Part shown: positions 4,870 through 54,675 of the stretch, in pieces | Numbering within the stretch: position 1 is the stretch's first letter | How the letters are laid out: each line of letters begins with the position of its first letter | Origin: an uncultured Thermococci archaeon | GTDB taxonomy: Archaea > Methanobacteriota_B > Thermococci > Methanofastidiosales > B48-G16 | Assembly: GCA_964595645.1 (NCBI GenBank) | Contig: CAZQQT010000011.1 | Coordinates: 2,064-66,063 of the forward strand | DNA: 64,000 nt | Reading direction: 5' to 3' | Position numbers and translations under genes: made by a program | The notes under the pieces: model-generated | The model's database searches: none | Told to the model about the DNA's origin: nothing | Seen by the model: only the letters and a program-made list of their open reading frames with translations

Positions 4870-6441
4870 TTATTGTTTTTTCATCACCATGCGTACCGTA
4901 TAGATAACCACAGCTGCAATACCCACAACAAATAGTATAAGGGGGATATACTCAAATATCCCTACCATTTTCTGGTTGTCCTGAAGCTCCGTGATTTTCT
5001 GTGTACAGAGATCGGCTTTTTCCTGGTTGATATCCTTGTAGAACTCTCTGGCCTGTTCATAATCCTGTATGGCACCGTCGTAATTCTCTTCTTGTTCTTT
5101 TTGTTGAGCCTGTGAAAAATACATATCTCCATTGATTCCTTTATATGCCTTTGAAATAAACGTATCGCAGACCTGTACCATTTCTGTATCGCCTAGTTCT
5201 TCGTAAAGTGCTTTCGCCTGGGTAAACTTTTCTTTTGCATCTGTATACTTCTTCTGGTTGAAGAGTGCTCCTCCCTGCTTGTAAAGTGCCTGTGCCTGAT
5301 TCTTTTTTGCTTCGATATCTTCTTCCTCCTCTTCTTCCTCTTCTTCCTCCTCTTCTTCTTTCTCCTTTGGTTTCTCCTTTTCGTACGTGAACACATTTAA
5401 AAATCGCCAGCTCGAGGCGAGAATCTCCTTTTTTCCATCGCCATCAAGATCTTCAGTTTGGATCTTGAACACTTCATCATTGGAGTAGGTGGTGTTGTAC
5501 TGCGCGACCCGTTCTCCGTCCTCTACCACAACGAGGGTGTTCCCTAGCGCCAGCAGTACTTCAGGAATGTTGTTTCCATCGAGATCCTCGATATATGCTG
5601 TAGTAAAATGCTTGGCACTCGGATACTCATACTCCCACTCCTGTGTTCCTTCCTTATCATACGCAGCAATTGTATACTTGTGAAGGACAACTATCTCATC
5701 AACACCGTTGCCATTATGATCCGCCAAGAAAGCGTCGATCGCCTCATTATCAAGAGGATGTTTCCAGTACAGAAGCCCATTTTGTTTATAAAAACGAAGC
5801 TCATCACCGGCAAGGACGATTTCCTGGACACCATCACCGTTGAAATCATGGACAATGAAGGCGTTTGTATCTGTACAACAGTACCAGAGATCATTGAGAT
5901 CTTTATCAAGAACGTAAAACTTGTCGGCGGCCACAATAAACTCGAGATTTCCGTCGCCATCGAGATCCGTGCACGCTACTTTTTTTATTTCTGGTATCTC
6001 TCGAGAGTGCTTGGGATTTCCATTTCTGTAGAATGTATATATTCTCTCCTCAGTAGCAAAAATCAATTCCTTTCGTGCATCACTGTCAAGATCCCGTATC
6101 ATAGCGGCCTTTACCTCTCCTTCTAGCACGCACTGGGCTTTCATATTCCCTAAGTAGTCGATAAGGTAAGCAACATCTTTTCCCCCCACAGCAAAGGAAG
6201 GCGTAAGATAGACCTCTGAAAAATCAAAGGCATTTCCCGGGTACTCAAACTTTTTCAAAGAGTTTCCATCGAAGTCTACAATGTGCAGGAATTTACTCCC
6301 TATCGCTATCTCCTCCTTGCCATCGTCGTTATAATCTAAAACACAAAAGTCGTATACCTTCTCCTTCGTCTGAAAATTCCAATCTGCACTCGCCATTGGC
6401 ACTACTAGAAGTACCACTACCACAGCTAACCACTTCTTCAT
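4870..6441 (-). CDS. Secreted, membrane-anchored protein: FG-GAP-like repeats, a poly-Glu linker, a TPR-like region and a C-terminal TM helix
   Basis: Signal peptide (MKKWLAVVVVLLVVPMASA). Repeated DxDGDG, DFNGDG and DHNGNG calcium-binding propeller-type motifs. A run of 15 Glu. A C-terminal hydrophobic helix (IPLILFVVGIAAVVIY). Confidence 0.55.
   Translation of the reverse strand: MKKWLAVVVVLLVVPMASADWNFQTKEKVYDFCVLDYNDDGKEEIAIGSKFLHIVDFDGNSLKKFEYPGNAFDFSEVYLTPSFAVGGKDVAYLIDYLGNMKAQCVLEGEVKAAMIRDLDSDARKELIFATEERIYTFYRNGNPKHSREIPEIKKVACTDLDGDGNLEFIVAADKFYVLDKDLNDLWYCCTDTNAFIVHDFNGDGVQEIVLAGDELRFYKQNGLLYWKHPLDNEAIDAFLADHNGNGVDEIVVLHKYTIAAYDKEGTQEWEYEYPSAKHFTTAYIEDLDGNNIPEVLLALGNTLVVVEDGERVAQYNTTYSNDEVFKIQTEDLDGDGKKEILASSWRFLNVFTYEKEKPKEKEEEEEEEEEEEEEDIEAKKNQAQALYKQGGALFNQKKYTDAKEKFTQAKALYEELGDTEMVQVCDTFISKAYKGINGDMYFSQAQQKEQEENYDGAIQDYEQAREFYKDINQEKADLCTQKITELQDNQKMVGIFEYIPLILFVVGIAAVVIYTVRMVMKKQ
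5318..5372. repeat. Tri-/dodecanucleotide simple-sequence repeat (ctc/ttc units) encoding the poly-Glu tract
   Basis: The stretch tcttcctcctcttcttcctcttcttcctcctcttcttctttctcc is visible directly in the sequence. Confidence 0.7.
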
Positions 6442-6442
6442 A

Positions 6443-6790
6443 TTATTCTTCCTCCATAAACTTATCCAATCCTTCCTCTATTTTCTCGTTTTTCATGTAA
6501 TACTCCAAGAGATCAACCCACGCCTTTTCATAATCTCTCTCTTCATCTCTCCTGAACTCGTCTGTATATATTTTCTTACTCCTCCTATATAAATCTTTTA
6601 CTTCTTTTTTCGTCAGTTTACCGTTCAGGATGCGATACACGGCAGTACGATGATCATTCTCTTCAAGGGCAGTGATAAATCCCATGAGCGCCTTTATGTA
6701 CCCTCGTGTAAGTTCGGGCTCTTTTTCTTCACATATTTCTCTCATTCTCGAGGTATCTTTATTAATTAAAGCTTTAAAGAATCTATTCAT
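6443..6790 (-). CDS. Hypothetical protein (115 aa, charged)
   Basis: The ORF is tightly packed with its flanking genes on the same strand. No recognisable motif. Confidence 0.4.
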   Translation of the reverse strand: MNRFFKALINKDTSRMREICEEKEPELTRGYIKALMGFITALEENDHRTAVYRILNGKLTKKEVKDLYRRSKKIYTDEFRRDEERDYEKAWVDLLEYYMKNEKIEEGLDKFMEEE

Positions 6791-36561: not shown

Positions 36562-36658
36562 GCCGGGGTGGCTCAGCCTGGTGAGAGCGCTCAGCTCATA
36601 AGTCTACTCAGAGCGCTGAGAAACTGAGAGGTCGCGGGTTCAAAGCCCGCCCCCGGCA
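36562..36658 (+). tRNA. tRNA with CAT anticodon (elongator Met or Ile2) carrying a 22-nt intron at the canonical 37/38 position
   Basis: Manual fold. Acceptor GCCGGGG/CCCCGGC with G1:C72, so not an initiator. Anticodon stem CTCAG/CTGAG. Loop CTCATA is interrupted at 36601..36622 by agtctactcagagcgctgagaa, then A-CTGAG resumes. T-arm GCGGG-TTCAAAG-CCCGC. Confidence 0.75.
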
Positions 36659-36782: not shown

Positions 36783-37251
36783 ATGTTTAGTGTCTCCGCA
36801 CTTTTCCACGATCTGATAGTCTACCAGAAAGACGACCCAAGGTCCGATAGAGAACACGAGGAGAGCGCCGAAAGGGCTAGGGAAATCCTCGAAAGATTGG
36901 AAGGGTTCCCGAAAGAGAAGATAGACGATGTATGTAACGCGATAGAGAACTGTTCTTTCTTGAATGATTCCATGCCCGACTGGCTTGAAGCCACGGGTGT
37001 GATATCGATCATGCGGACTTATGCTTCTGCAGGATGGGGGGGTAGAAAATTATACAATCCCGATGAGCCTATCCCGGAGAAAAGAAAACCCGAATCCGAC
37101 AAGTATGGCCTTGATTTATTTTCACAAGACTTTTGAAGATCAAAGAAAGGGTGCACACCAGCACAGCAAAAAAATGGCCGAGAGAAAGACCTCTTTTATC
37201 AAAGACTTTTTGGACGAGTTTGTAAAGGAGGTTGAGGAGTACTATTCCTGA
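36783..37251 (+). pseudogene. Truncated and frameshifted HD-domain phosphohydrolase fragment
   Basis: Two overlapping ORFs in different frames (36783..37136 and 37021..37251). The first begins at the HD motif (SALFHDL) and lacks the upstream His motif. An in-frame stop lies at 36705 between it and the tRNA. Confidence 0.45.
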
Positions 37252-37526
37252 AGTTCTTCAATTTATTAAATCTGAAAGCTCCGACCACCATGAGGGTCGG
37301 TATTATGATAAGCTCGACGTGAGAAATCGTCACGCCTGGCAGGTAGAGGACCTTGCTCACGGCTATGAGGGTTATACATAGAGCCATGAAAAACTTGAAC
37401 CCCTTGGGCAAAGGTTCTCACCGGGAGTCCCGATAAAGATTTCTTTTGACGATTTTACAGTGGAGACAATGGAAGGTTTCGAGAAGACCGTACAATTATG
37501 AGTGAGAAGTGAAAAAATGTCCATGC

Positions 37527-37826
37527 TCACCTTTTTCGCAGGATCCATGCCATGATCCCCAAACTCATAAATACGAGGGCCGCCGCTGAGATCCAGAGGA
37601 GGTTGCCAATGAAATGGTAGTACTCCCAGACGATCGTCGCAACGAGGTAACACATATATCCAACAAAAAGGGTCAGCACAGCGTATTTGAATGTAGTGTA
37701 CTGCAGGAAGATTCGAGAAGTTGCCAATTTCGCCTTTTCAGATGTGTGAAACTGGCGATAGATATAGTTAGCTGCCAGAAATGCGAACACGAGCAAAATA
37801 AACATTATTGTATCATACAGATCCAT
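37527..37826 (-). CDS. Small three-TM protein, paralog d of a tandem array
   Basis: TM1 followed by the conserved amphipathic segment EKAKLATSRIFL, then two TM helices. Confidence 0.55.
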   Translation of the reverse strand: MDLYDTIMFILLVFAFLAANYIYRQFHTSEKAKLATSRIFLQYTTFKYAVLTLFVGYMCYLVATIVWEYYHFIGNLLWISAAALVFMSLGIMAWILRKR

Positions 37827-37836
37827 TTTTTCACCT

Positions 37837-38154
37837 CTAAATCTCCTCTTCTATTTTTTTACTTTTAATCGTGACTGTGAGTGTGTAGAATCCGTGAATT
37901 ACAAGAAGGGGTGCAATAACAAGTATAATACCTGCTAGGTGCTTGCTATGATACCAAAGGACAATACTGATCAAATACAGTAGTATCGCAGTCATGATCT
38001 CGAAAAAAGAACGTCTCACCTTCCCATGGTTTAAAAACATCTTTGCCGTGTTTATTCGTGCTTTCTCTTCTGTGGTAAAAAGAAGAAAAAATTTAAATAT
38101 CATCACAGCGCCTACTGTGCCCAAAATCACAGCCAAAGGATCATATAGATTCAT
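37837..38154 (-). CDS. Small three-TM protein, paralog c
   Basis: EEKARINTAKMFL motif. Start overlaps the upstream stop (ATGA). Confidence 0.55.
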   Translation of the reverse strand: MNLYDPLAVILGTVGAVMIFKFFLLFTTEEKARINTAKMFLNHGKVRRSFFEIMTAILLYLISIVLWYHSKHLAGIILVIAPLLVIHGFYTLTVTIKSKKIEEEI

Positions 38155-38465
38155 GAAGACACCTCCGTTTCTTGAAGCTGAACTTTTATGAGAATGATGT
38201 AAAAAAACAGGAGACAGACAGTGCCTAGGGTATGCAGTATAGCATGAATAGGTCCATAGTTGGAGAAGGTAGAGTAGAGAAAGGACACTGTATGTATAAA
38301 TATTCCTATCATCAAAATTCGAACAGCGGAGATAGTTGTGTACGTGTTGAGAAATAGTTTTGCAAGGAATGTTTCTGGAGAACGTTTGAATTTTATTAGG
38401 AGAACAAAGATTGAAGTGAGATGTAAGATCGCGAAGAAAAAAGTGGGGACACTATACACATTCAT
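38151..38465 (-). CDS. Small three-TM protein, paralog b
   Basis: PETFLAKLFL motif. 4-nt overlaps with both neighbours. Confidence 0.55.
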   Translation of the reverse strand: MNVYSVPTFFFAILHLTSIFVLLIKFKRSPETFLAKLFLNTYTTISAVRILMIGIFIHTVSFLYSTFSNYGPIHAILHTLGTVCLLFFYIILIKVQLQETEVSS

Positions 38466-38770
38466 TTTCCCAACTCCAGAACTTTATTCAGCTGATAACT
38501 GAGATAAAGGAAGGAAAGCCAGTAGATCCACATAATCCAGCCGATCTTCGAGGGGCTCATGCCAGCAGTCCATAAAAATCCAAATGCAAAGAATACAGCT
38601 GTTCCTGCAAGAAGTGCAAGCAATCCATGATATATTCTCTCTTTTTTCAAGAATATTTTTGCTGTGGCAAGTTTTTTATTTCTCAGTTTCTGGTTTACCT
38701 GTACAGAAAAGTAGATAATTGTTATCCCTATAATAGCTGCCAGTACTGCCCTAATCTCCTCAGTCATCAC
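38462..38770 (-). CDS. Small three-TM protein, paralog a
   Basis: NKKLATAKIFL motif. Stop is 3 nt from the Roadblock gene. Confidence 0.55.
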   Translation of the reverse strand: MMTEEIRAVLAAIIGITIIYFSVQVNQKLRNKKLATAKIFLKKERIYHGLLALLAGTAVFFAFGFLWTAGMSPSKIGWIMWIYWLSFLYLSYQLNKVLELGK

Positions 38771-38772
38771 GA

Positions 38773-39132
38773 TTACCCTAGAATCTTCTCCACTTTTTCT
38801 GCAGCTTTATCCAGTCCTGCAAGAAGAGATCGTACATCAGTTTCTGAGGTCATGCAGACGAGGAATGCCTTCTCTCCTGCTCCCTCCGTAATAATTCGAT
38901 ATTCTCCTGTCTCCACGATAATTCTCTCAGGTAGTTCTGCCCCTATCTCGCTGGTAGCAGTCTCAGCAGCACCGAGTATTGTAGCAGCCATGGCAGCGAA
39001 GGTTTCAGCATTGATGTCCTGTGGAATATCGGCACAGATGGGCAGTCCCGATCGTGTAACAATGGCAGAAGCTTTTATCTCGAAAGTTTCTTCCAGCTCC
39101 TCTAAAATCTCACTCAATAACTCTTTCTTCAT
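38773..39132 (-). CDS. Roadblock/LC7 (MglB-like) domain protein
   Basis: ASAIVTRSGLPICADIP...ETFAAMAATILGAAE, ~119 aa. Confidence 0.75.
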   Translation of the reverse strand: MKKELLSEILEELEETFEIKASAIVTRSGLPICADIPQDINAETFAAMAATILGAAETATSEIGAELPERIIVETGEYRIITEGAGEKAFLVCMTSETDVRSLLAGLDKAAEKVEKILG

Positions 39133-39627
39133 TTAATCACCCAACACACCTTTCCTCACCTTAAAAACGCAGTGATCATTTCCTGTGGCAATACATTCCT
39201 TTTCTTCAACCACAATCTTCTCTCCAAATATTGACTCGATTAATCCAGAAATATACCCAGCTATAAATACACAAACCGGGAACTTCTGATCTTTTTTCAC
39301 GACATCGTTCCATTTTTTCCCAATGAATGAGTCGTATAAACGCACCTCGCCTTCAAAGGTGTCAAAATCTATATTATACTCGAATTCGCCCCATCCCCCT
39401 TTCAAATCCGTCTCCTGCGTTTTTTTTAATAATGTCACACCTTCTGATTTCGTAAGTTTTTTTTCTTTCCTCCCGAACAATCGTCCTGTTCGAGATCCTA
39501 CATTATACAAAAGAGAATGAGCCCCATTTTTCCCCAATAAGTCGTAAATACTACCAAAAATTGTTATTATCGTTCTATGGTCAAAAGCAACAACATCTAC
39601 GCCTTCTATCTCTAGGCTTTCACTCAT
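39133..39627 (-). CDS. V4R (4-vinyl reductase) domain protein
   Basis: C-terminal CVFIAGYISGLIESIFG...CIATGNDHCVF with the conserved Cys pattern of V4R. Confidence 0.65.
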   Translation of the reverse strand: MSESLEIEGVDVVAFDHRTIITIFGSIYDLLGKNGAHSLLYNVGSRTGRLFGRKEKKLTKSEGVTLLKKTQETDLKGGWGEFEYNIDFDTFEGEVRLYDSFIGKKWNDVVKKDQKFPVCVFIAGYISGLIESIFGEKIVVEEKECIATGNDHCVFKVRKGVLGD

Positions 39628-39677
39628 GTTATTTCATCTCTCTATTACTATATAAAACTTATCATTGATATAGAAAT

Positions 39678-40928
39678 TCATAAAAAATCTCGTGGATCTG
39701 TGATTTCTCCTGTGATTGCTGATGCTGCCACCGTTGCTGGCGACGCCAGATACACAAAGGCTTCCTTACAACCCATACGTCCTTTAAAGTTCCTGTTTGC
39801 AGTCGAGACACACACTTCGTCTGGGGCCAAAATGCCCTCATGTGCACCAAGACAGGGACCACAGTTTGGGTTCAAGATCATCGCACCTGCCTCCACAAGA
39901 TCAGCAATTACTCCTTCATTCACTGCATCCAGGTAAACCTCTCGCGATGCGGGTAATACCAAAAGTCGTACACTGTCATGCACTGTATTTCCTTTAAGGA
40001 TCTTCGCAGCTTCCTCCAAGTCCTCGAGTCGTCCATTGGTACATGTCCCAATCAGTGCCTGATCGATCTCCACATTAACATCGGTGACATCTTTCACATT
40101 ATCTACAGTGTGGGGGCATGCTACCCTCGGTGTGATGTCTTCAGCACTGTATTCCAGTTTCTTCGTGTACGCATCATCCAGCGGCTTCACTGATGTAATT
40201 TCCTCAGAAACACGGCTTTTTAGCCACTTTTCTGTTTTTTTATCAGCTGGAACAATCCCTGTCTTGGCTCCCATCTCTGCACTCATATTTGAAAGGACCA
40301 TTCTTCCTGGAATACTGAGGTGATCTATTGTCTCACCGTGGAACTCCACGGACATGTAGTTTGCTCCATCGGCCCGTACATCTCCAATGATATGGAGAAT
40401 AAGATCCTTTGCATAGACACCCTCCTCCAGCTCGCCATCCACAATAATTTTCATCGACTCGGGGACCTTCAGCCACAACTTGCCAGCAGCCATTATTGAT
40501 GCTGCTTCACTTCGTCCAATACCGGCAGAGAAGGCACCAAAGGCACCATAAGTAGTAGTATGAGAATCAGAACCGAGAATAAGCCTACCTGGCAGTACAT
40601 GACCCTTCTCAGGGACTACCTGATGACATATTCCTTCTTTTATATCGTAAAAATGTGTGATACGCTGTTCTTCAACAAACTCACGTATTGCCTTGTGATT
40701 CTTTGCGTAACTTTCATCAGCCGCTGGTACACAGTGATCGATTGGAATTACTATTTTTTTAGGGTTCCAGACTTTTTCTACACCAATAGAGTAGAATTTT
40801 TTAGATATTGCAGCAGTATTTTCATGTGTCAGTAAAATATCGGGTTCAGCCTCAATAATCTCATTTTCTTTCACTTTTTTTCCCGTTTTCTCTCCTAAAA
40901 TAGCCTTCGCTATTGTCATTTTTGACAC
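39678..40928 (-). CDS. leuC: Aconitase-family hydro-lyase large subunit (3-isopropylmalate or homoaconitate dehydratase)
   Basis: Cys-ligand regions (TCTNGRL, NCGPCLG). 416 aa, as for the archaeal LeuC/HacA large subunit. Confidence 0.8.
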   Translation of the reverse strand: MSKMTIAKAILGEKTGKKVKENEIIEAEPDILLTHENTAAISKKFYSIGVEKVWNPKKIVIPIDHCVPAADESYAKNHKAIREFVEEQRITHFYDIKEGICHQVVPEKGHVLPGRLILGSDSHTTTYGAFGAFSAGIGRSEAASIMAAGKLWLKVPESMKIIVDGELEEGVYAKDLILHIIGDVRADGANYMSVEFHGETIDHLSIPGRMVLSNMSAEMGAKTGIVPADKKTEKWLKSRVSEEITSVKPLDDAYTKKLEYSAEDITPRVACPHTVDNVKDVTDVNVEIDQALIGTCTNGRLEDLEEAAKILKGNTVHDSVRLLVLPASREVYLDAVNEGVIADLVEAGAMILNPNCGPCLGAHEGILAPDEVCVSTANRNFKGRMGCKEAFVYLASPATVAASAITGEITDPRDFL

Positions 40929-50481: not shown

Positions 50482-52979
50482 TCCTGCGCTCTTTACTCAG
50501 AAGAAAAAAGAGAGCTGCCCTCACGCTCATCGGCGTGGTACTTGCCTCTTCAGCCTTCTCCATCTTCGTGACCCTGTCGGAGAACATCTCCCTCCAGACC
50601 CAGGGGGAACTGGAGAGGAACTGGCGGTACTCCTACGATATTCTCGTGAGGCCGAAGAACTCGCTCACTCCCACAGAGAAGGAGCACGGCCTTGTTCGGC
50701 CCAACTTCCTAAGCAGTATCTACGGCGGGATCACGGTGGACCAGTGGAGAACGGTACGGGAGATCGACGGTGTGGAGGTGGCTGCTCCCATTGCAGTGAT
50801 GGGATACACCGATATTACAGTGCCTATAGGAATAGAGCTTCGGGAAGGACTATATAAAATAGAAAGATCTTGTGCCATAACAGATGGATATAAAAGGTAC
50901 GATTATCCAGAGGGACTTCTTAGACGGACAAACGAACAAGAAATTGATGGAAAAGTAGTAGGATGGGTGTATATAGCCGATGATAAGTTCATTAAAAAGT
51001 TTAAGGATCGTGAAGGAAGACACCCCGACAAAAAGTTCTATACCGTTTATAGAAAAGGCCCCCATGTAACGGGGGAGCTTTTTTCCGGATACGCAGTAGA
51101 ATATGTTATAGATTTTCTATCAGCGGCAATTGATCCAGAGGAGGAAAGTAAACTTCACAGCATCGAGGAGTCAATCGTAAAAGGGAATTTTCTAGAGAGG
51201 GCTAAGAGAGAAAAAAGGATGGGTACCAGTGGCATCCCCTTTATTGTCAATATAACTCCCTACACCGACCAAAATCTTGCTTGGAAGGCTTACAGAGTTG
51301 ATCTCCCCTCAGATGCGAGTGCACTAGCTCTAACGAAAGAAAAAGCTGAGTCCTTGCCCAGAAAATTTTTTATGAAGAAAACACTGACGAAGAAAGATGT
51401 GGCTACACGGTTTATTAATAAGCCCCTGAGAGAGATTTTCTACGTTCCGAATTGTTTTACCCATCTTCAACCTGTTGAGTATGAGTATCTATCCGATCCT
51501 ACCTTTTCCCAGAAATACGATATTCTACTGAGGGCCTTACCCCTTATATCTCTGGAAGAGAACGAAATTACCAATAGCGAACTTGGCCATGATAGACCCT
51601 TACCATTTAAACCCTTATTTGAGGGGGACTGGTTGGTGCCTACAAATACTTACCTTCCAAAGAATGTAGGCCTATTCGATATAACGAAGATCCCCGCACC
51701 AAAGGTAAAAGGAATCCCCACCCCTCTCTACACTCCCCCCACGGTGACACTGAAGTACGACGAAAACAAGAACCCCATCGATCCCGTGAAGCTTAACCCC
51801 ACCGATCCGCAGGGCTACATCACCGAGCCCCCCTTCATGCTCACCACCATCGAAGGGGCGAGAAAGATCGTGGGCGACGACTGTATCAGTGCCATTCGAG
51901 TGAGGGTCTCGGGTATCGAGGAGATCAACGAGGAATCATTTAAGAAAATTAAAAAGATCGCCAGAGAGATCGCACAAAGCACGGATCTCCACGTGGACAT
52001 CATGGTGGGATCCTCGCCGAAAGAAGTGCTGGTCCACCTGCCAGGTCTCGGCTACGCCGAGGAGCAGTGGGTGGAGAAGGGGGTCACCGTGGAGATCTTC
52101 AAGTACACAAAAACATCCACCCTCCTCATCTTCTCCGTCTGCCTCGTGGTATCGTCGCTCTTCATTCTTAGTACAATGCTGATCTCGACGCAGTACAGGA
52201 GGAAGGAGATAGGTCTCCTGAAAAGTATCGGCTGGTACAACGCGACCGTCTTCAGCACGATACTCGGAGAGTCCCTCCTTCTCGGGGTGGTGGGCGGGGG
52301 CATCGGCATCGGTCTCACCGTCGTGTTACGCGTGCTCGATCTCCTCATCCCACTATCGAGGGTACTCCTCATCCTCCCCATCGCCGTGCTGCTCTCGGTA
52401 CTGGGAGGGCTGTACCCCGCGTACAACGCGGCACGGATGGATTCGGTAAAAACGCTGCGAGAAAAGGACGATACAAAAAAGAGGAAAGTCCCGGTGCTCA
52501 TCTGCATCGCGGTGTCCACCGCCCTCCTCTCCGTGCTACTCTTAACGACCATGAACCTCGAGAACGTCCTGGAAGGGACGATCCTCGGAGAGAGGATCTC
52601 GGTGACCGTAGGGAAATACCACTACCTCTCCGTGGGTGTCTGTCTCGTGCTCTCCTCGCTTGCGGTAGGAGATGTGATCTCGAGAACCGTGTATGAACGA
52701 AAAAGGGAGATAGGTCTCCTGAAGAGCATCGGCTGGTACACCGGGGACATCGCAACACAGTTTCTCGCCGAGGCAGTGGTACTCGGTGGTGCCGGAGGTG
52801 TGATAGGTGTCCTCGCCGGCTGTACCGTGTACAGCGTGGTGTCTCAAGCATCCCTCCGAAGTCTCCTCATCACCGTTGCCATCGGTATCTCTGTCTCGCT
52901 CGTGGTCAGTGTTCTCTCCTCCCTCTACCCTGTGAGGAGGATCGCTGGAATACTACCCGCTGAGGCAATGAGGAGGTGA
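50478..52979 (+). CDS. ABC transporter permease with duplicated FtsX domains and a large extracytoplasmic domain
   Basis: N-terminal TM, a ~450-aa loop, then two FtsX-like 4-TM modules (LLKSIGWY motif appears twice). The 3' half is conspicuously GC-rich. Confidence 0.75.
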   Translation: MILRSLLRRKKRAALTLIGVVLASSAFSIFVTLSENISLQTQGELERNWRYSYDILVRPKNSLTPTEKEHGLVRPNFLSSIYGGITVDQWRTVREIDGVEVAAPIAVMGYTDITVPIGIELREGLYKIERSCAITDGYKRYDYPEGLLRRTNEQEIDGKVVGWVYIADDKFIKKFKDREGRHPDKKFYTVYRKGPHVTGELFSGYAVEYVIDFLSAAIDPEEESKLHSIEESIVKGNFLERAKREKRMGTSGIPFIVNITPYTDQNLAWKAYRVDLPSDASALALTKEKAESLPRKFFMKKTLTKKDVATRFINKPLREIFYVPNCFTHLQPVEYEYLSDPTFSQKYDILLRALPLISLEENEITNSELGHDRPLPFKPLFEGDWLVPTNTYLPKNVGLFDITKIPAPKVKGIPTPLYTPPTVTLKYDENKNPIDPVKLNPTDPQGYITEPPFMLTTIEGARKIVGDDCISAIRVRVSGIEEINEESFKKIKKIAREIAQSTDLHVDIMVGSSPKEVLVHLPGLGYAEEQWVEKGVTVEIFKYTKTSTLLIFSVCLVVSSLFILSTMLISTQYRRKEIGLLKSIGWYNATVFSTILGESLLLGVVGGGIGIGLTVVLRVLDLLIPLSRVLLILPIAVLLSVLGGLYPAYNAARMDSVKTLREKDDTKKRKVPVLICIAVSTALLSVLLLTTMNLENVLEGTILGERISVTVGKYHYLSVGVCLVLSSLAVGDVISRTVYERKREIGLLKSIGWYTGDIATQFLAEAVVLGGAGGVIGVLAGCTVYSVVSQASLRSLLITVAIGISVSLVVSVLSSLYPVRRIAGILPAEAMRR

Positions 52980-53001
52980 AAAGTTGGGGGATTGAAGGAA
53001 T

Positions 53002-53943
53002 TCACTCTTCTATCTCCACAATCTTCTTTATCAACGCCGGATCGTCAGGAAGCAATCCTGTTTTGGGCAATCGCCCCACAAAGTTACGCCATCTCGGCTC
53101 TTTTTTGAATACATCGGCAAAGATTGGCTTTGCCTCGTCAAATTTTCCTGCAGATACAAGAGAAACTGCCTGCCAGAAGGGAAGCTCCACAATTTCAGGC
53201 GCCAGTGAAGCAGCTGTTCCGTACTCCTCATTCGCCTCTGCAATGTTTCCTTCAGCAGCAAGATCGTCTCCTCGACTTGCATGTTCGTATGCTCGATTCA
53301 GTTGAAGCAGCCGCCGAAGCTCAGTAAGCGGCTCTTTGTGATCTTCCACACGGAGATCGAATCGCCGATCTGCCCACGATTTTCCTGTAGCGTCTCCACG
53401 AACGACAAGAAGTGCTGCAGACTGTTTTCCACGGGCATCTCCTCCTTCTCCCTGTGCGGCCTCAAGTGCGGTCATGATACGTTCGGCAAGATCGCCGTCA
53501 CAAGTTTCAAATACCGCCTTCATCGCAGGCCAGACGGTATCCTTCGCCATCATGTTCGCCTGGACGGAGAAGTTCTCTCCCTCTGCATGACCTGCTTCAG
53601 CAACACATCGGGATCCCGTGTGTACTGCTGTACTTCCCTCTGCATCTATCATTGCTACCTGTCGGGTTTCTTTTTGGGAATCAGCTGCCAAAAGTGCATC
53701 CAACGTTTCCTGTGCAGATTTTCCAGTACGCATAAGTGTGAGCCCCAACGGACCGTAGGAAGGCTCTACGAAGGACTGTGTAGCCACCGCACCAATTTCT
53801 ACCTCTGCCCACGGTACCGCAGACCCCACTGAAAACCAGTGCGACTGCACGCCTACACCGTACTCTCCTGTCTTCGGATCGTACGCCACAATAGAGTACG
53901 TGGCAACTGGACGATGGAACCTATTCTTTCCATTCTCTCTCAT
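53002..53943 (-). CDS. DUF1028-family (Ntn-hydrolase-like) protein
   Basis: N-terminal ATYSIVAYD after the start, matching the DUF1028 TFSIVA pattern. GC-rich. Confidence 0.6.
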   Translation of the reverse strand: MRENGKNRFHRPVATYSIVAYDPKTGEYGVGVQSHWFSVGSAVPWAEVEIGAVATQSFVEPSYGPLGLTLMRTGKSAQETLDALLAADSQKETRQVAMIDAEGSTAVHTGSRCVAEAGHAEGENFSVQANMMAKDTVWPAMKAVFETCDGDLAERIMTALEAAQGEGGDARGKQSAALLVVRGDATGKSWADRRFDLRVEDHKEPLTELRRLLQLNRAYEHASRGDDLAAEGNIAEANEEYGTAASLAPEIVELPFWQAVSLVSAGKFDEAKPIFADVFKKEPRWRNFVGRLPKTGLLPDDPALIKKIVEIEE

Positions 53944-53994
53944 ATATACACCCTCACTTCTTTTTATGGTCTTTGTACATAAATGTTTCTGTCG

Positions 53995-54675
53995 TTACCG
54001 TACTTCCGTGTCTACATACGGCTGTAGAATCTCCGCAAACTGCTGCAATACGTGAGGTGGATATGGAGCTATTTCCTCAAATTTTGGGTCCAGTGTGTTT
54101 TTCGGCACAAACTGCTGTAAATAGTACTTTCTTGCATTGTTGATGAGCTTCCCAATATTCTCAGCGATTGTTGCGTTGTAAAACGGAGGAACAACAGTTG
54201 TTCTAAACTCATATGCGATATCGGAACTCTTCAAAATGTCTATCGATTCTTCTATTACTGCAGTGTCCACCTCTACTCCTGCAGCTTCAGAGTATGCCTC
54301 CAGATCCGATTTTATATCCATGGAGACATAGTCCAAGAGTTCCTGGTCCAGCAGATTCCGAAGCATTGAGGGATTGCTCCCATTGGTGTCCAGCTTCACT
54401 AACAGCGAGATCTCCCTTATTCTCGTAATGAGATCGGGGAGATCGTTGTAGATAGTGGGCTCACCTCCTGTAATCACCACCCCGTCGATATACTTTTTTC
54501 TCGCCGCAAGTTGGTGAAGTATTTCTTCTTCATCCAGCGGAGGAAGCGTGTCCAGTACAAGATCTCTGTTATGGCAGTACGGACAGCGGAAATTACATCT
54601 AGATAAAAAAAGAACAGAAGAGATATTTTTTGGATAGTCTATTAGTGACGTTTTCTGAAAACCAGCGATCTTCAT
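53995..54675 (-). CDS. nrdG: Anaerobic ribonucleotide reductase activating protein (radical SAM)
   Basis: SRCNFRCPYCHN cluster motif, ~226 aa. Overlaps the nrdD stop. Confidence 0.85.
   Translation of the reverse strand: MKIAGFQKTSLIDYPKNISSVLFLSRCNFRCPYCHNRDLVLDTLPPLDEEEILHQLAARKKYIDGVVITGGEPTIYNDLPDLITRIREISLLVKLDTNGSNPSMLRNLLDQELLDYVSMDIKSDLEAYSEAAGVEVDTAVIEESIDILKSSDIAYEFRTTVVPPFYNATIAENIGKLINNARKYYLQQFVPKNTLDPKFEEIAPYPPHVLQQFAEILQPYVDTEVR

Follow-up and report, generated by a model that had tools for sequence, protein, structure and literature searches.

Roadblock/LC7 proteins act as assembly platforms in several described systems. Roadblock dimers are tethered to the membrane by other subunits in the Ragulator and EGO complexes and in the Streptomyces conservon (PMC5696360, PMC6760929, PMC4316618). 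In the conservon, CvnA to CvnD, a Roadblock/LC7 protein belongs to a membrane-associated complex encoded by one operon, according to PMC4316618, which cites Komatsu 2006; the same paper cites Koonin and Aravind 2000 for the regulation of nucleoside triphosphatases (NTPases) by Roadblock/LC7 proteins. TRAPP pairs subunits of the Bet3 fold, which is the V4R fold, with subunits of the longin/roadblock fold (PMC2253512, PMC10933270). In Myxococcus and Thermus, MglB, a regulator of the Roadblock/LC7 fold, is defined by the adjacent gene of the guanosine triphosphatase (GTPase) MglA. Here we analyze a 64,000-nucleotide (nt) stretch of DNA from an uncultured, anaerobic Thermococci archaeon (GenBank assembly GCA_964595645.1, contig CAZQQT010000011.1), hereafter the window, in which six tightly packed open reading frames (ORFs) on the minus strand, 37527-39627, encode in this order a V4R protein, a Roadblock/LC7 protein and four small proteins, TM_A, TM_B, TM_C and TM_D, each with three transmembrane (TM) segments. 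Roadblock/LC7 and stand-alone V4R proteins are widespread in archaea, and a regulatory role has long been predicted for them; to our knowledge, neither their function nor their partners are known. Such regulatory modules are thus familiar, and the novelty of this locus lies in an optional family of probable membrane partners that had escaped annotation.

The system is a member of none of the complexes named above, since the GTPase, kinase or lipid anchor that defines them is absent. Like the conservon it has a Roadblock/LC7 protein in a one-operon set; the conservon comprises a sensor histidine kinase as its membrane component, a DUF742 protein and a GTPase, whereas the window shares only the Roadblock component. 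The likeness to the eukaryotic Ragulator and EGO-TC, and to the pairing of folds in TRAPP, is architectural only, in that Roadblock/longin dimers serve there as platforms with a dedicated membrane anchor. That anchor is lipidated (LAMTOR1/Ego1), in contrast to the 3-TM proteins considered here, and no homology of the anchors is implied. Ragulator and TRAPP further contain several distinct roadblock/longin subunits together with a cognate Rag or Rab GTPase; no GTPase was found near the window genes. MglB resembles the window protein as a regulator of the Roadblock/LC7 fold, but there is no adjacent MglA here, and MglB systems lack V4R and membrane mini-proteins.

That the 3-TM proteins and Roadblock are functionally tied is supported above all by gene linkage in other genomes. 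A profile of the four window paralogs, run against 1.84 billion protein representatives at E <= 1e-3, gave 11 matches, of which four were the window's own proteins and seven came from elsewhere. Six of these seven are encoded no more than two genes away from a Roadblock gene, some before it and some after it, in operons of two unrelated types, so that the neighborhood comparison proposed in a preliminary description of the stretch, which had been made from the DNA letters and their translations, returned the co-occurrence it was meant to look for. P0013 and P0017 are A- and B-type proteins whose orthologues follow V4R-Roadblock in MAG196; P0012, a CD-type protein, is encoded 9 nt past a Roadblock stop codon (locus L008); and P0015, P0016 and P0018 are M1-type proteins of an operon in Methanobacteriaceae, found also in Methanobacterium sp. 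Maddingley MBC34. Relatives of the window locus are metagenome-assembled genomes (MAGs) labelled Methanobacteriota, Methanomicrobia or Thermococci archaeon. Among them, TM_A orthologues lie directly 3' of Roadblock in L026, L028, L029 and L030, and in L004 after a 149-amino-acid (aa) protein designated X149, while TM_B orthologues follow subtype A in L004, L026, L029 and L030. The close coupling of Roadblock and TM genes by start/stop overlap or abutment recurs in L026, L029 and L030, each with a 4-nt overlap with the Roadblock stop codon. The 3-TM genes come in paralogous sets, A+B, M1+M2 or A+B+C+D, placed downstream of Roadblock in the V4R-type operon and upstream of it in the Methanobacteriaceae type. 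The linkage recurs independently in other lineages, on both sides of Roadblock and in two contexts, which lends strong support to a functional tie. A single-sequence word-index search with TM_D found only TM_D itself, a method too insensitive for this family. The family is also under-annotated: some copies are uncalled in public records, among them a B-type gene at L003 7639-7941 and TM genes of L026, L029 and L030.

The second operon type is seen, for example, in Methanobacterium sp. Maddingley MBC34 (AMGN01000033.1), with further examples at L012 174-6032, L025 7459-14003, L063 and L070. It runs from two pilin-like genes through M1, M2, Roadblock and a fusion of KaiC with an Arf/Ras-type GTPase to two KaiC genes, a gene for a small protein and one for a TPR protein. 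The two leading proteins carry class III (type IV pilin-like) signal peptides (KG|QLPIEF), and the 390-aa KaiC+GTPase fusion is encoded directly 3' of Roadblock. Between the pilin-like genes and Roadblock there is a variable slot, which may be empty or be filled by M1-M2 or by an additional gene with a KaiC domain; tandem members of the 3-TM family adjoin Roadblock in L009-L016, L025, L044, L063, L065 and L070. The operon has in common with the window a homologous Roadblock (34-39% identity) and tandem paralogous 3-TM genes adjoining it. It differs in that the window has V4R in place of KaiC/GTPase and lacks the pilin-like genes, and in that the TM genes number four in the window and lie downstream of Roadblock, as opposed to two lying upstream. 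A 171-aa protein of the Methanobacteriaceae operon, considered as V4R-like, was rejected (hhalign 0.2%, no Pfam V4R match). We found no published account of this operon as a unit; the KaiC-hub survey of Makarova et al. 2017 may depict it, and Roadblock arCOG02603 and KaiC ATPases have been noted near archaeal type IV pilus loci (PMC4858521).

TM_A to TM_D form one real, very small family. Pairwise local alignments scored above shuffled sequences for C and D (z=12), A and D (z=5.8) and A and C (z=3.4). The similarity of TM_B to the other window paralogs did not rise above shuffles, and the paralogy first ascribed to all four thus held beyond chance for three pairs and, for TM_B, through profiles only. 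With relatives added, the family divides into subtypes A, B and CD and the Methanobacteriaceae subtypes M1 and M2. In profile tests across subtypes, where decoy noise stood at about 5e-4, A matched M1 at 1e-13 to 1e-15, CD matched A at 1e-8 to 1e-10 and B matched M1 at 1e-5 to 1e-6, and M2 aligned in register with the other subtypes along 93 columns (hhalign 94.8%, E 5e-8). Differences between orthologue pairs were most frequent at third codon positions, then first, then second, indicating that these genes are real coding sequences. The four-fold tandem amplification suggested in the preliminary description did not stand: A and B have orthologues in relatives, C and D represent a third subtype, and the window paralogs are only about 20% identical, which argues against recent amplification. 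The window set thus combines an A/B pair of old origin with two genes of the CD type.

Each of the four proteins, about 100 aa long, has three hydrophobic segments, and the three helices and basic motifs originally read in them were all present. The AlphaFold2 model of TM_A (pLDDT 84, pTM 0.70) places helices at residues 3-27, 31-40, 42-67 and 72-98. Mean charges per protein, given as lysine plus arginine over aspartate plus glutamate, were +0.08/-1.1 for the N-terminus, +4.3/-1.5 for loop 1, +0.4/-1.0 for loop 2 and +1.8/-1.4 for the C-terminus, a pattern that indicates an N-out/C-in topology. The only invariant residues of the family, F39 and L40, both lie within the cytoplasmic helix that carries the basic motif, for which the consensus is K..K...[AS][KR][ILM]FL[NK]. 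Outside the membrane the proteins expose two stretches of about 6 and 9 residues (<=10 outside), which leaves no room for a sensor domain; the sensor-like subunit envisaged at the outset is thus not borne out.

We tentatively favor a reading to which we give somewhat less than an even chance: that the 3-TM proteins are membrane docks, a hetero-oligomer that holds a Roadblock/V4R platform through the basic cytoplasmic helix, with the target located elsewhere. The 3-TM proteins would form a hetero-oligomer in the cytoplasmic membrane, with A and B as its core and C and D as extra subunits, and their conserved basic helix would dock the soluble Roadblock, as a dimer, together with V4R at the inner membrane face. 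Roadblock would then act as the adaptor platform and the TM proteins as its anchor. The downstream target would lie outside the operon and could be an NTPase whose gene is elsewhere, or a process at the membrane. The same evidence of linkage and coupling would fit TM proteins that are themselves the regulated effector, that is, a hetero-oligomeric pore, transporter or membrane-remodelling unit gated by V4R-Roadblock and its ligand; paired three-helix paralogs could build a 6- or 12-helix assembly, and the operon contains no other output component and has no NTPase nearby. Against such an effector, the proteins showed no similarity to transporter or channel families in Pfam, NCBIfam or PDB folds, their TM helices contain few conserved polar residues while conservation peaks in the cytoplasmic helix, and the Methanobacteriaceae operon already has enzymes of its own (KaiC, GTPase) and treats the TM pair as optional. 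We consider an effector role rather unlikely.

Searches of the 3-TM proteins for known relatives among described families were uniformly negative, and the initial impression that the proteins match no described family was borne out. Against Pfam and NCBIfam the best E values were 0.03-0.8, all far below cut-offs in significance; PADLOC gave no matches and PHROGs none below E 0.099; and the best Foldseek match of the fold to the PDB had E 0.94. No significant sequence or fold match to a characterized transporter, chaperone, holin or defence family was thus obtained, and a defence-system or phage origin was rejected on the PADLOC and PHROGs results. We found no description of the family in the literature.

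The Roadblock protein (119 aa, 38773..39132, minus strand) matched Pfam Robl_LC7 (PF03259) with 49.5 bits against a cut-off of 23, over profile positions 3-90 of 91, in keeping with its first assignment, and matched archaeal Roadblock proteins of the PDB (9jue_D at 2.3e-10, 7yh1_D at 8.9e-6). Its identity is 62-68% with the syntenic orthologues and 34-39% with the Roadblock that adjoins KaiC+GTPase in Methanobacteriaceae. A Roadblock-alignment scan of metagenome contigs yielded 80 loci (L026-L105), which we annotated with custom hidden Markov models and a GTPase motif and which split into 9 of the window's clade, 43 of the KaiC+GTPase type and 28 of a third kind. The KaiC+GTPase fusion is adjacent to Roadblock in 43 of the 80 loci, and V4R is adjacent in none of those 43. 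By comparison, a V4R of about 200 aa (65-70 bits in Pfam) lies within 201 nt of Roadblock in 19 of the 28 third-kind loci, where the V4R-Roadblock pairs adjoin LarC-QueC or PycB. These pairs, from other methanogen-type Euryarchaeota, have in common with the window an adjacent stand-alone V4R and Roadblock with no GTPase nearby; their V4R is longer (about 200 aa) and its gene in some cases converges on Roadblock, 3-TM genes are lacking and the flanks are different.

Neither a homologue of GTPases or KaiC nor a G1-G3-G4 motif was found in the 64-kb window, which upheld the initial view that the locus has no GTPase partner, and the motif was likewise absent from the 37 loci without a KaiC+GTPase gene; as a positive control, it flagged 37 of the 43 KaiC+GTPase loci. 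Nor was a GTPase present within about 6 kb of the V4R-Roadblock pairs that we examined. An adjacent MglA-like GTPase, the partner by which an MglB-type system is recognized, was thus lacking in the window and in the syntenic loci. A missing GTPase is not unusual, since 19 of the 28 third-kind loci pair V4R with Roadblock in its absence, and a V4R-Roadblock pair with no GTPase nearby is the ordinary state of the module. The expectation that V4R and Roadblock genes usually sit beside a GTPase therefore failed: all 43 GTPase-type loci are without V4R, and the V4R pairs are without GTPase. V4R and KaiC+GTPase are mutually exclusive, alternative neighbors of the window's Roadblock subfamily, and the contrast between 0 of 43 and 19 of 28 suggests that V4R takes the place of the NTPase as partner and does not act alongside it.

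These data also bear on the proposal that the module works exactly like MglB/MglA or the conservon, with Roadblock as a GTPase-activating or guanine nucleotide exchange platform for a small GTPase encoded elsewhere and with V4R and the TM proteins only tuning the place and time of its switching. It would agree with the role in NTPase regulation noted above for Roadblock/LC7 proteins and with the observation that the nearest non-syntenic Roadblocks (34-39%) directly precede the KaiC+Arf/Ras-like GTPase fusion, as in 43 of the 80 loci, yet the absence of a GTPase from the window and from the surroundings of the pairs, and the separation of V4R from the GTPase-type loci, count against it. We regard this proposal, which overlaps with the membrane-dock reading, as unlikely.

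The V4R protein (164 aa, 39133..39627, minus strand) is a stand-alone protein of the Bet3/TRAPPC3-like small-molecule-binding domain. It exceeded the Pfam threshold (V4R, PF02830, 51.6 bits against a cut-off of 31), and a profile of six orthologues matched MJ1460, MopR and PoxR in a PDB profile search. Its AlphaFold2 model (pLDDT 82) matched, over its own full length (about 157 columns), the sensor domains of the phenol sensors PoxR, MopR and DmpR (Foldseek E 2e-8, TM-score 0.76-0.79), MJ1460 with E 3e-7 and, more distantly, TRAPPC3/Bet3 (E 4e-6, TM-score about 0.58). The domain assigned to this protein at the outset thus received support from both the Pfam score and the full-length fold. Residues C119, E142, C145 and C153 are invariant in the six orthologues and align with the MopR zinc ligands, and their spacing of 23/3/8 equals that of the proven zinc ligands of XylR (C149/E172/C175/C183) and recurs in those of PoxR, MopR and DmpR. 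By this predicted ligand motif the protein is of the zinc-site subtype. V4R orthologues in relatives are only 54-57% identical to it. In the membrane-dock reading V4R would provide the input, through a zinc-stabilized pocket for a small, probably hydrophobic ligand.

The six genes constitute an operon that has a predicted promoter to itself and is distinct from the gene of the aconitase family lying upstream (39678-40928; 339 bits for Pfam Aconitase). All six minus-strand ORFs were found at the coordinates first given for them, and the start/stop overlaps reported there were likewise as described. The V4R stop codon abuts the Roadblock ATG with no gap. Two nt separate Roadblock from TM_A (subtype A, 102 aa, 38462..38770, minus strand), which begins with GTG and would measure 101 aa from an alternative ATG at 38767. 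TM_B (subtype B, 104 aa, 38151..38465, minus strand) overlaps TM_A in an ATGA at 38465/38462, and TM_C (subtype CD, 105 aa, 37837..38154, minus strand) overlaps TM_B in the same manner at 38154/38151. TM_D (subtype CD, 99 aa, 37527..37826, minus strand) follows after a 10-nt spacer with a GAGGTGA Shine-Dalgarno sequence. An archaeal BRE/TATA-like element (transcription factor B recognition element and TATA box), AAGTTTTATATAG, lies at 39648..39660 on the minus strand, 21 nt 5' of the V4R ATG, and an element AAGTTTTAAATATA occurs at equal distance 5' of V4R in L001, L004, L005, L007, L021, L026, L027 and L032. Judged by sequence and position, AAGTTTTATATAG would be the promoter, and a transcript with a very short leader or none is predicted. 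A run of six T residues (37512..37517, minus strand), 10 nt past the TM_D stop codon, is likely an archaeal oligo-T terminator. The claim of an operon is reinforced by the conservation of the BRE/TATA element before V4R in relatives and by the T run after TM_D.

All loci of the window's clade share the order aconitase-V4R-Roadblock, and the content 3' of Roadblock varies. Nothing follows Roadblock in L005 and L021. X149, a soluble protein, follows in L032-L034, and X149 with A and B in L004; A and B alone follow in L026, L029 and L030, overlapping the Roadblock stop codon, and a single CD-type gene in L008. In L001 and L027 the place is taken by an unrelated 347-aa 7-TM protein, and in the window by A, B, C and D. 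The far edge of this slot is a tRNA gene convergent with the operon (36562..36658, plus strand; Rfam 54.5 bits), which is probably intron-containing, since Rfam called it at 97 nt and ARAGORN missed it. At its 3' end it shares 97% identity with the tRNA directly after the TM gene in L008; a tRNA of this kind also comes after the TM genes of L004, L026 and L030, and in L026 the TM_B frame runs into it. A direct comparison of L008 (1-524) with L026 (6176-6967) showed Roadblock 3' ends that are 98.3% identical and tRNAs that are 97% identical, flanking segments that are non-homologous, one CD-type gene as against A+B, which amounts to a clean cassette replacement. The TM genes are thus optional, exchangeable cassettes between Roadblock and a tRNA gene.

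Several other occupants of the slot were examined. X149 (148-149 aa; L004 6174-6623, L032 6359-6805, L033/L034 about 6359-6790) had no match in Pfam or the PDB. By eye it is V4R-like (SIYD..G.GG in the N-terminal helix, LPCFF), but its candidacy as a second V4R was rejected on hhalign values of 15% and 2% and the lack of a PDB match; the idea that the 347-aa 7-TM protein is a fusion of 3-TM family members was likewise rejected on comparison. In the window, a pair of ORFs of 117 and 76 aa (36783-37251, plus strand), overlapping and in different reading frames, lies between the tRNA and TM_D. The 117-aa ORF has a sub-threshold HD-domain match (19.1 bits against a cut-off of 22), and the pair looks like a frameshifted or truncated HD-domain pseudogene. 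In relatives its place is held by a convergent membrane protein of roughly 672 aa, similar to PMT_2.

Such turnover invites the view that the TM genes are unrelated accessory cargo, for example strain-variable membrane or immunity-like proteins, in a tRNA-adjacent recombination hot spot and co-transcribed by position only. It would account for the flanks that are 97-98% identical around non-homologous cassettes in L008 and L026, and for a slot that also houses X149, the 7-TM protein and, in the window, the HD-domain pseudogene. Chance placement has more difficulty with the Methanobacteriaceae, where the same family adjoins a 35%-identical Roadblock from the upstream side, in a different operon with no tRNA, and chance linkage is very unlikely when 1.84 billion proteins yield just 7 representatives of the family outside the window. 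The 4-nt overlaps with the Roadblock stop codon in L026, L029 and L030 and the empty PADLOC and PHROGs searches point the same way, and we judge the cargo explanation quite improbable.

Several observations nevertheless weigh against the membrane-dock reading. The TM genes are dispensable, in that their number among close relatives is 0, 1, 2 or 4, and Roadblock proteins at least about 90% identical occur both with and without TM genes; the copy-number variation is also what the cargo explanation would expect, and the tRNA-adjacent slot with its cassette replacement could equally fit unrelated mobile cargo. P0014, a CD-type solo gene with no Roadblock nearby, speaks for cargo as well. M1/M2 are present in only 5 of the 43 KaiC+GTPase-type loci (about 5 positive among about 35 Methanobacteriaceae-type loci with enough upstream sequence). 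The hydrophobic moment of the basic segment is low (0.05-0.33); of the basic amphipathic segment first described, the basic character stood and the amphipathic one did not.

P0014 is encoded at L017-L020 (for example GCA_023129975.1, JAGMAZ010000203.1, 1188-1490) beside CBS-domain, HSP20, MarR-like and CDC48 genes. A convergent 87-aa two-TM ORF next to it matches TM2-TM3 of the family weakly, probably through composition. As for the wider window, the proteins looked up in a collection of 15 billion proteins, including PCNA and both RFC subunits, were singletons at 90% identity, which indicates that the source is the lone sequenced representative of its lineage. A local GC peak at 52001-54000 (0.54 against a window mean of 0.43) covers a DUF1028 gene and the end of a gene for an FtsX-like permease, contains no RNA gene and looks ordinary; its neighbors encode the anaerobic ribonucleotide reductase NrdD and its radical-SAM activase.

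The pairing of one Roadblock subfamily with V4R or with KaiC+GTPase, never with both, suggests interchangeable input modules on a common adaptor. In the broadest form of this idea, which we consider improbable, euryarchaeal methanogen-type lineages, outside Asgard, would possess a membrane-anchored platform of Roadblock and Bet3-like V4R with 3-TM anchors, alternative V4R or KaiC/GTPase input and exchangeable anchor cassettes. If true, prokaryotes would have their own counterpart to the Ragulator/TRAPP principle, a GTPase-regulatory platform tethered to the membrane, in which exchangeable anchor cassettes set where, or with what, the platform assembles. The 3-TM family, for which Pfam and NCBIfam hold no model, also exemplifies the small membrane proteins that annotation pipelines overlook. 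The finding is a niche one, and the membrane partner family offers a first concrete handle on archaeal Roadblock/V4R modules: dedicated membrane partners predict both a site for the complex, the inner membrane face, and a binding surface, the conserved basic helix, and Methanobacterium, with its homologous M1/M2-Roadblock-KaiC/GTPase operon, provides a culturable test bed.

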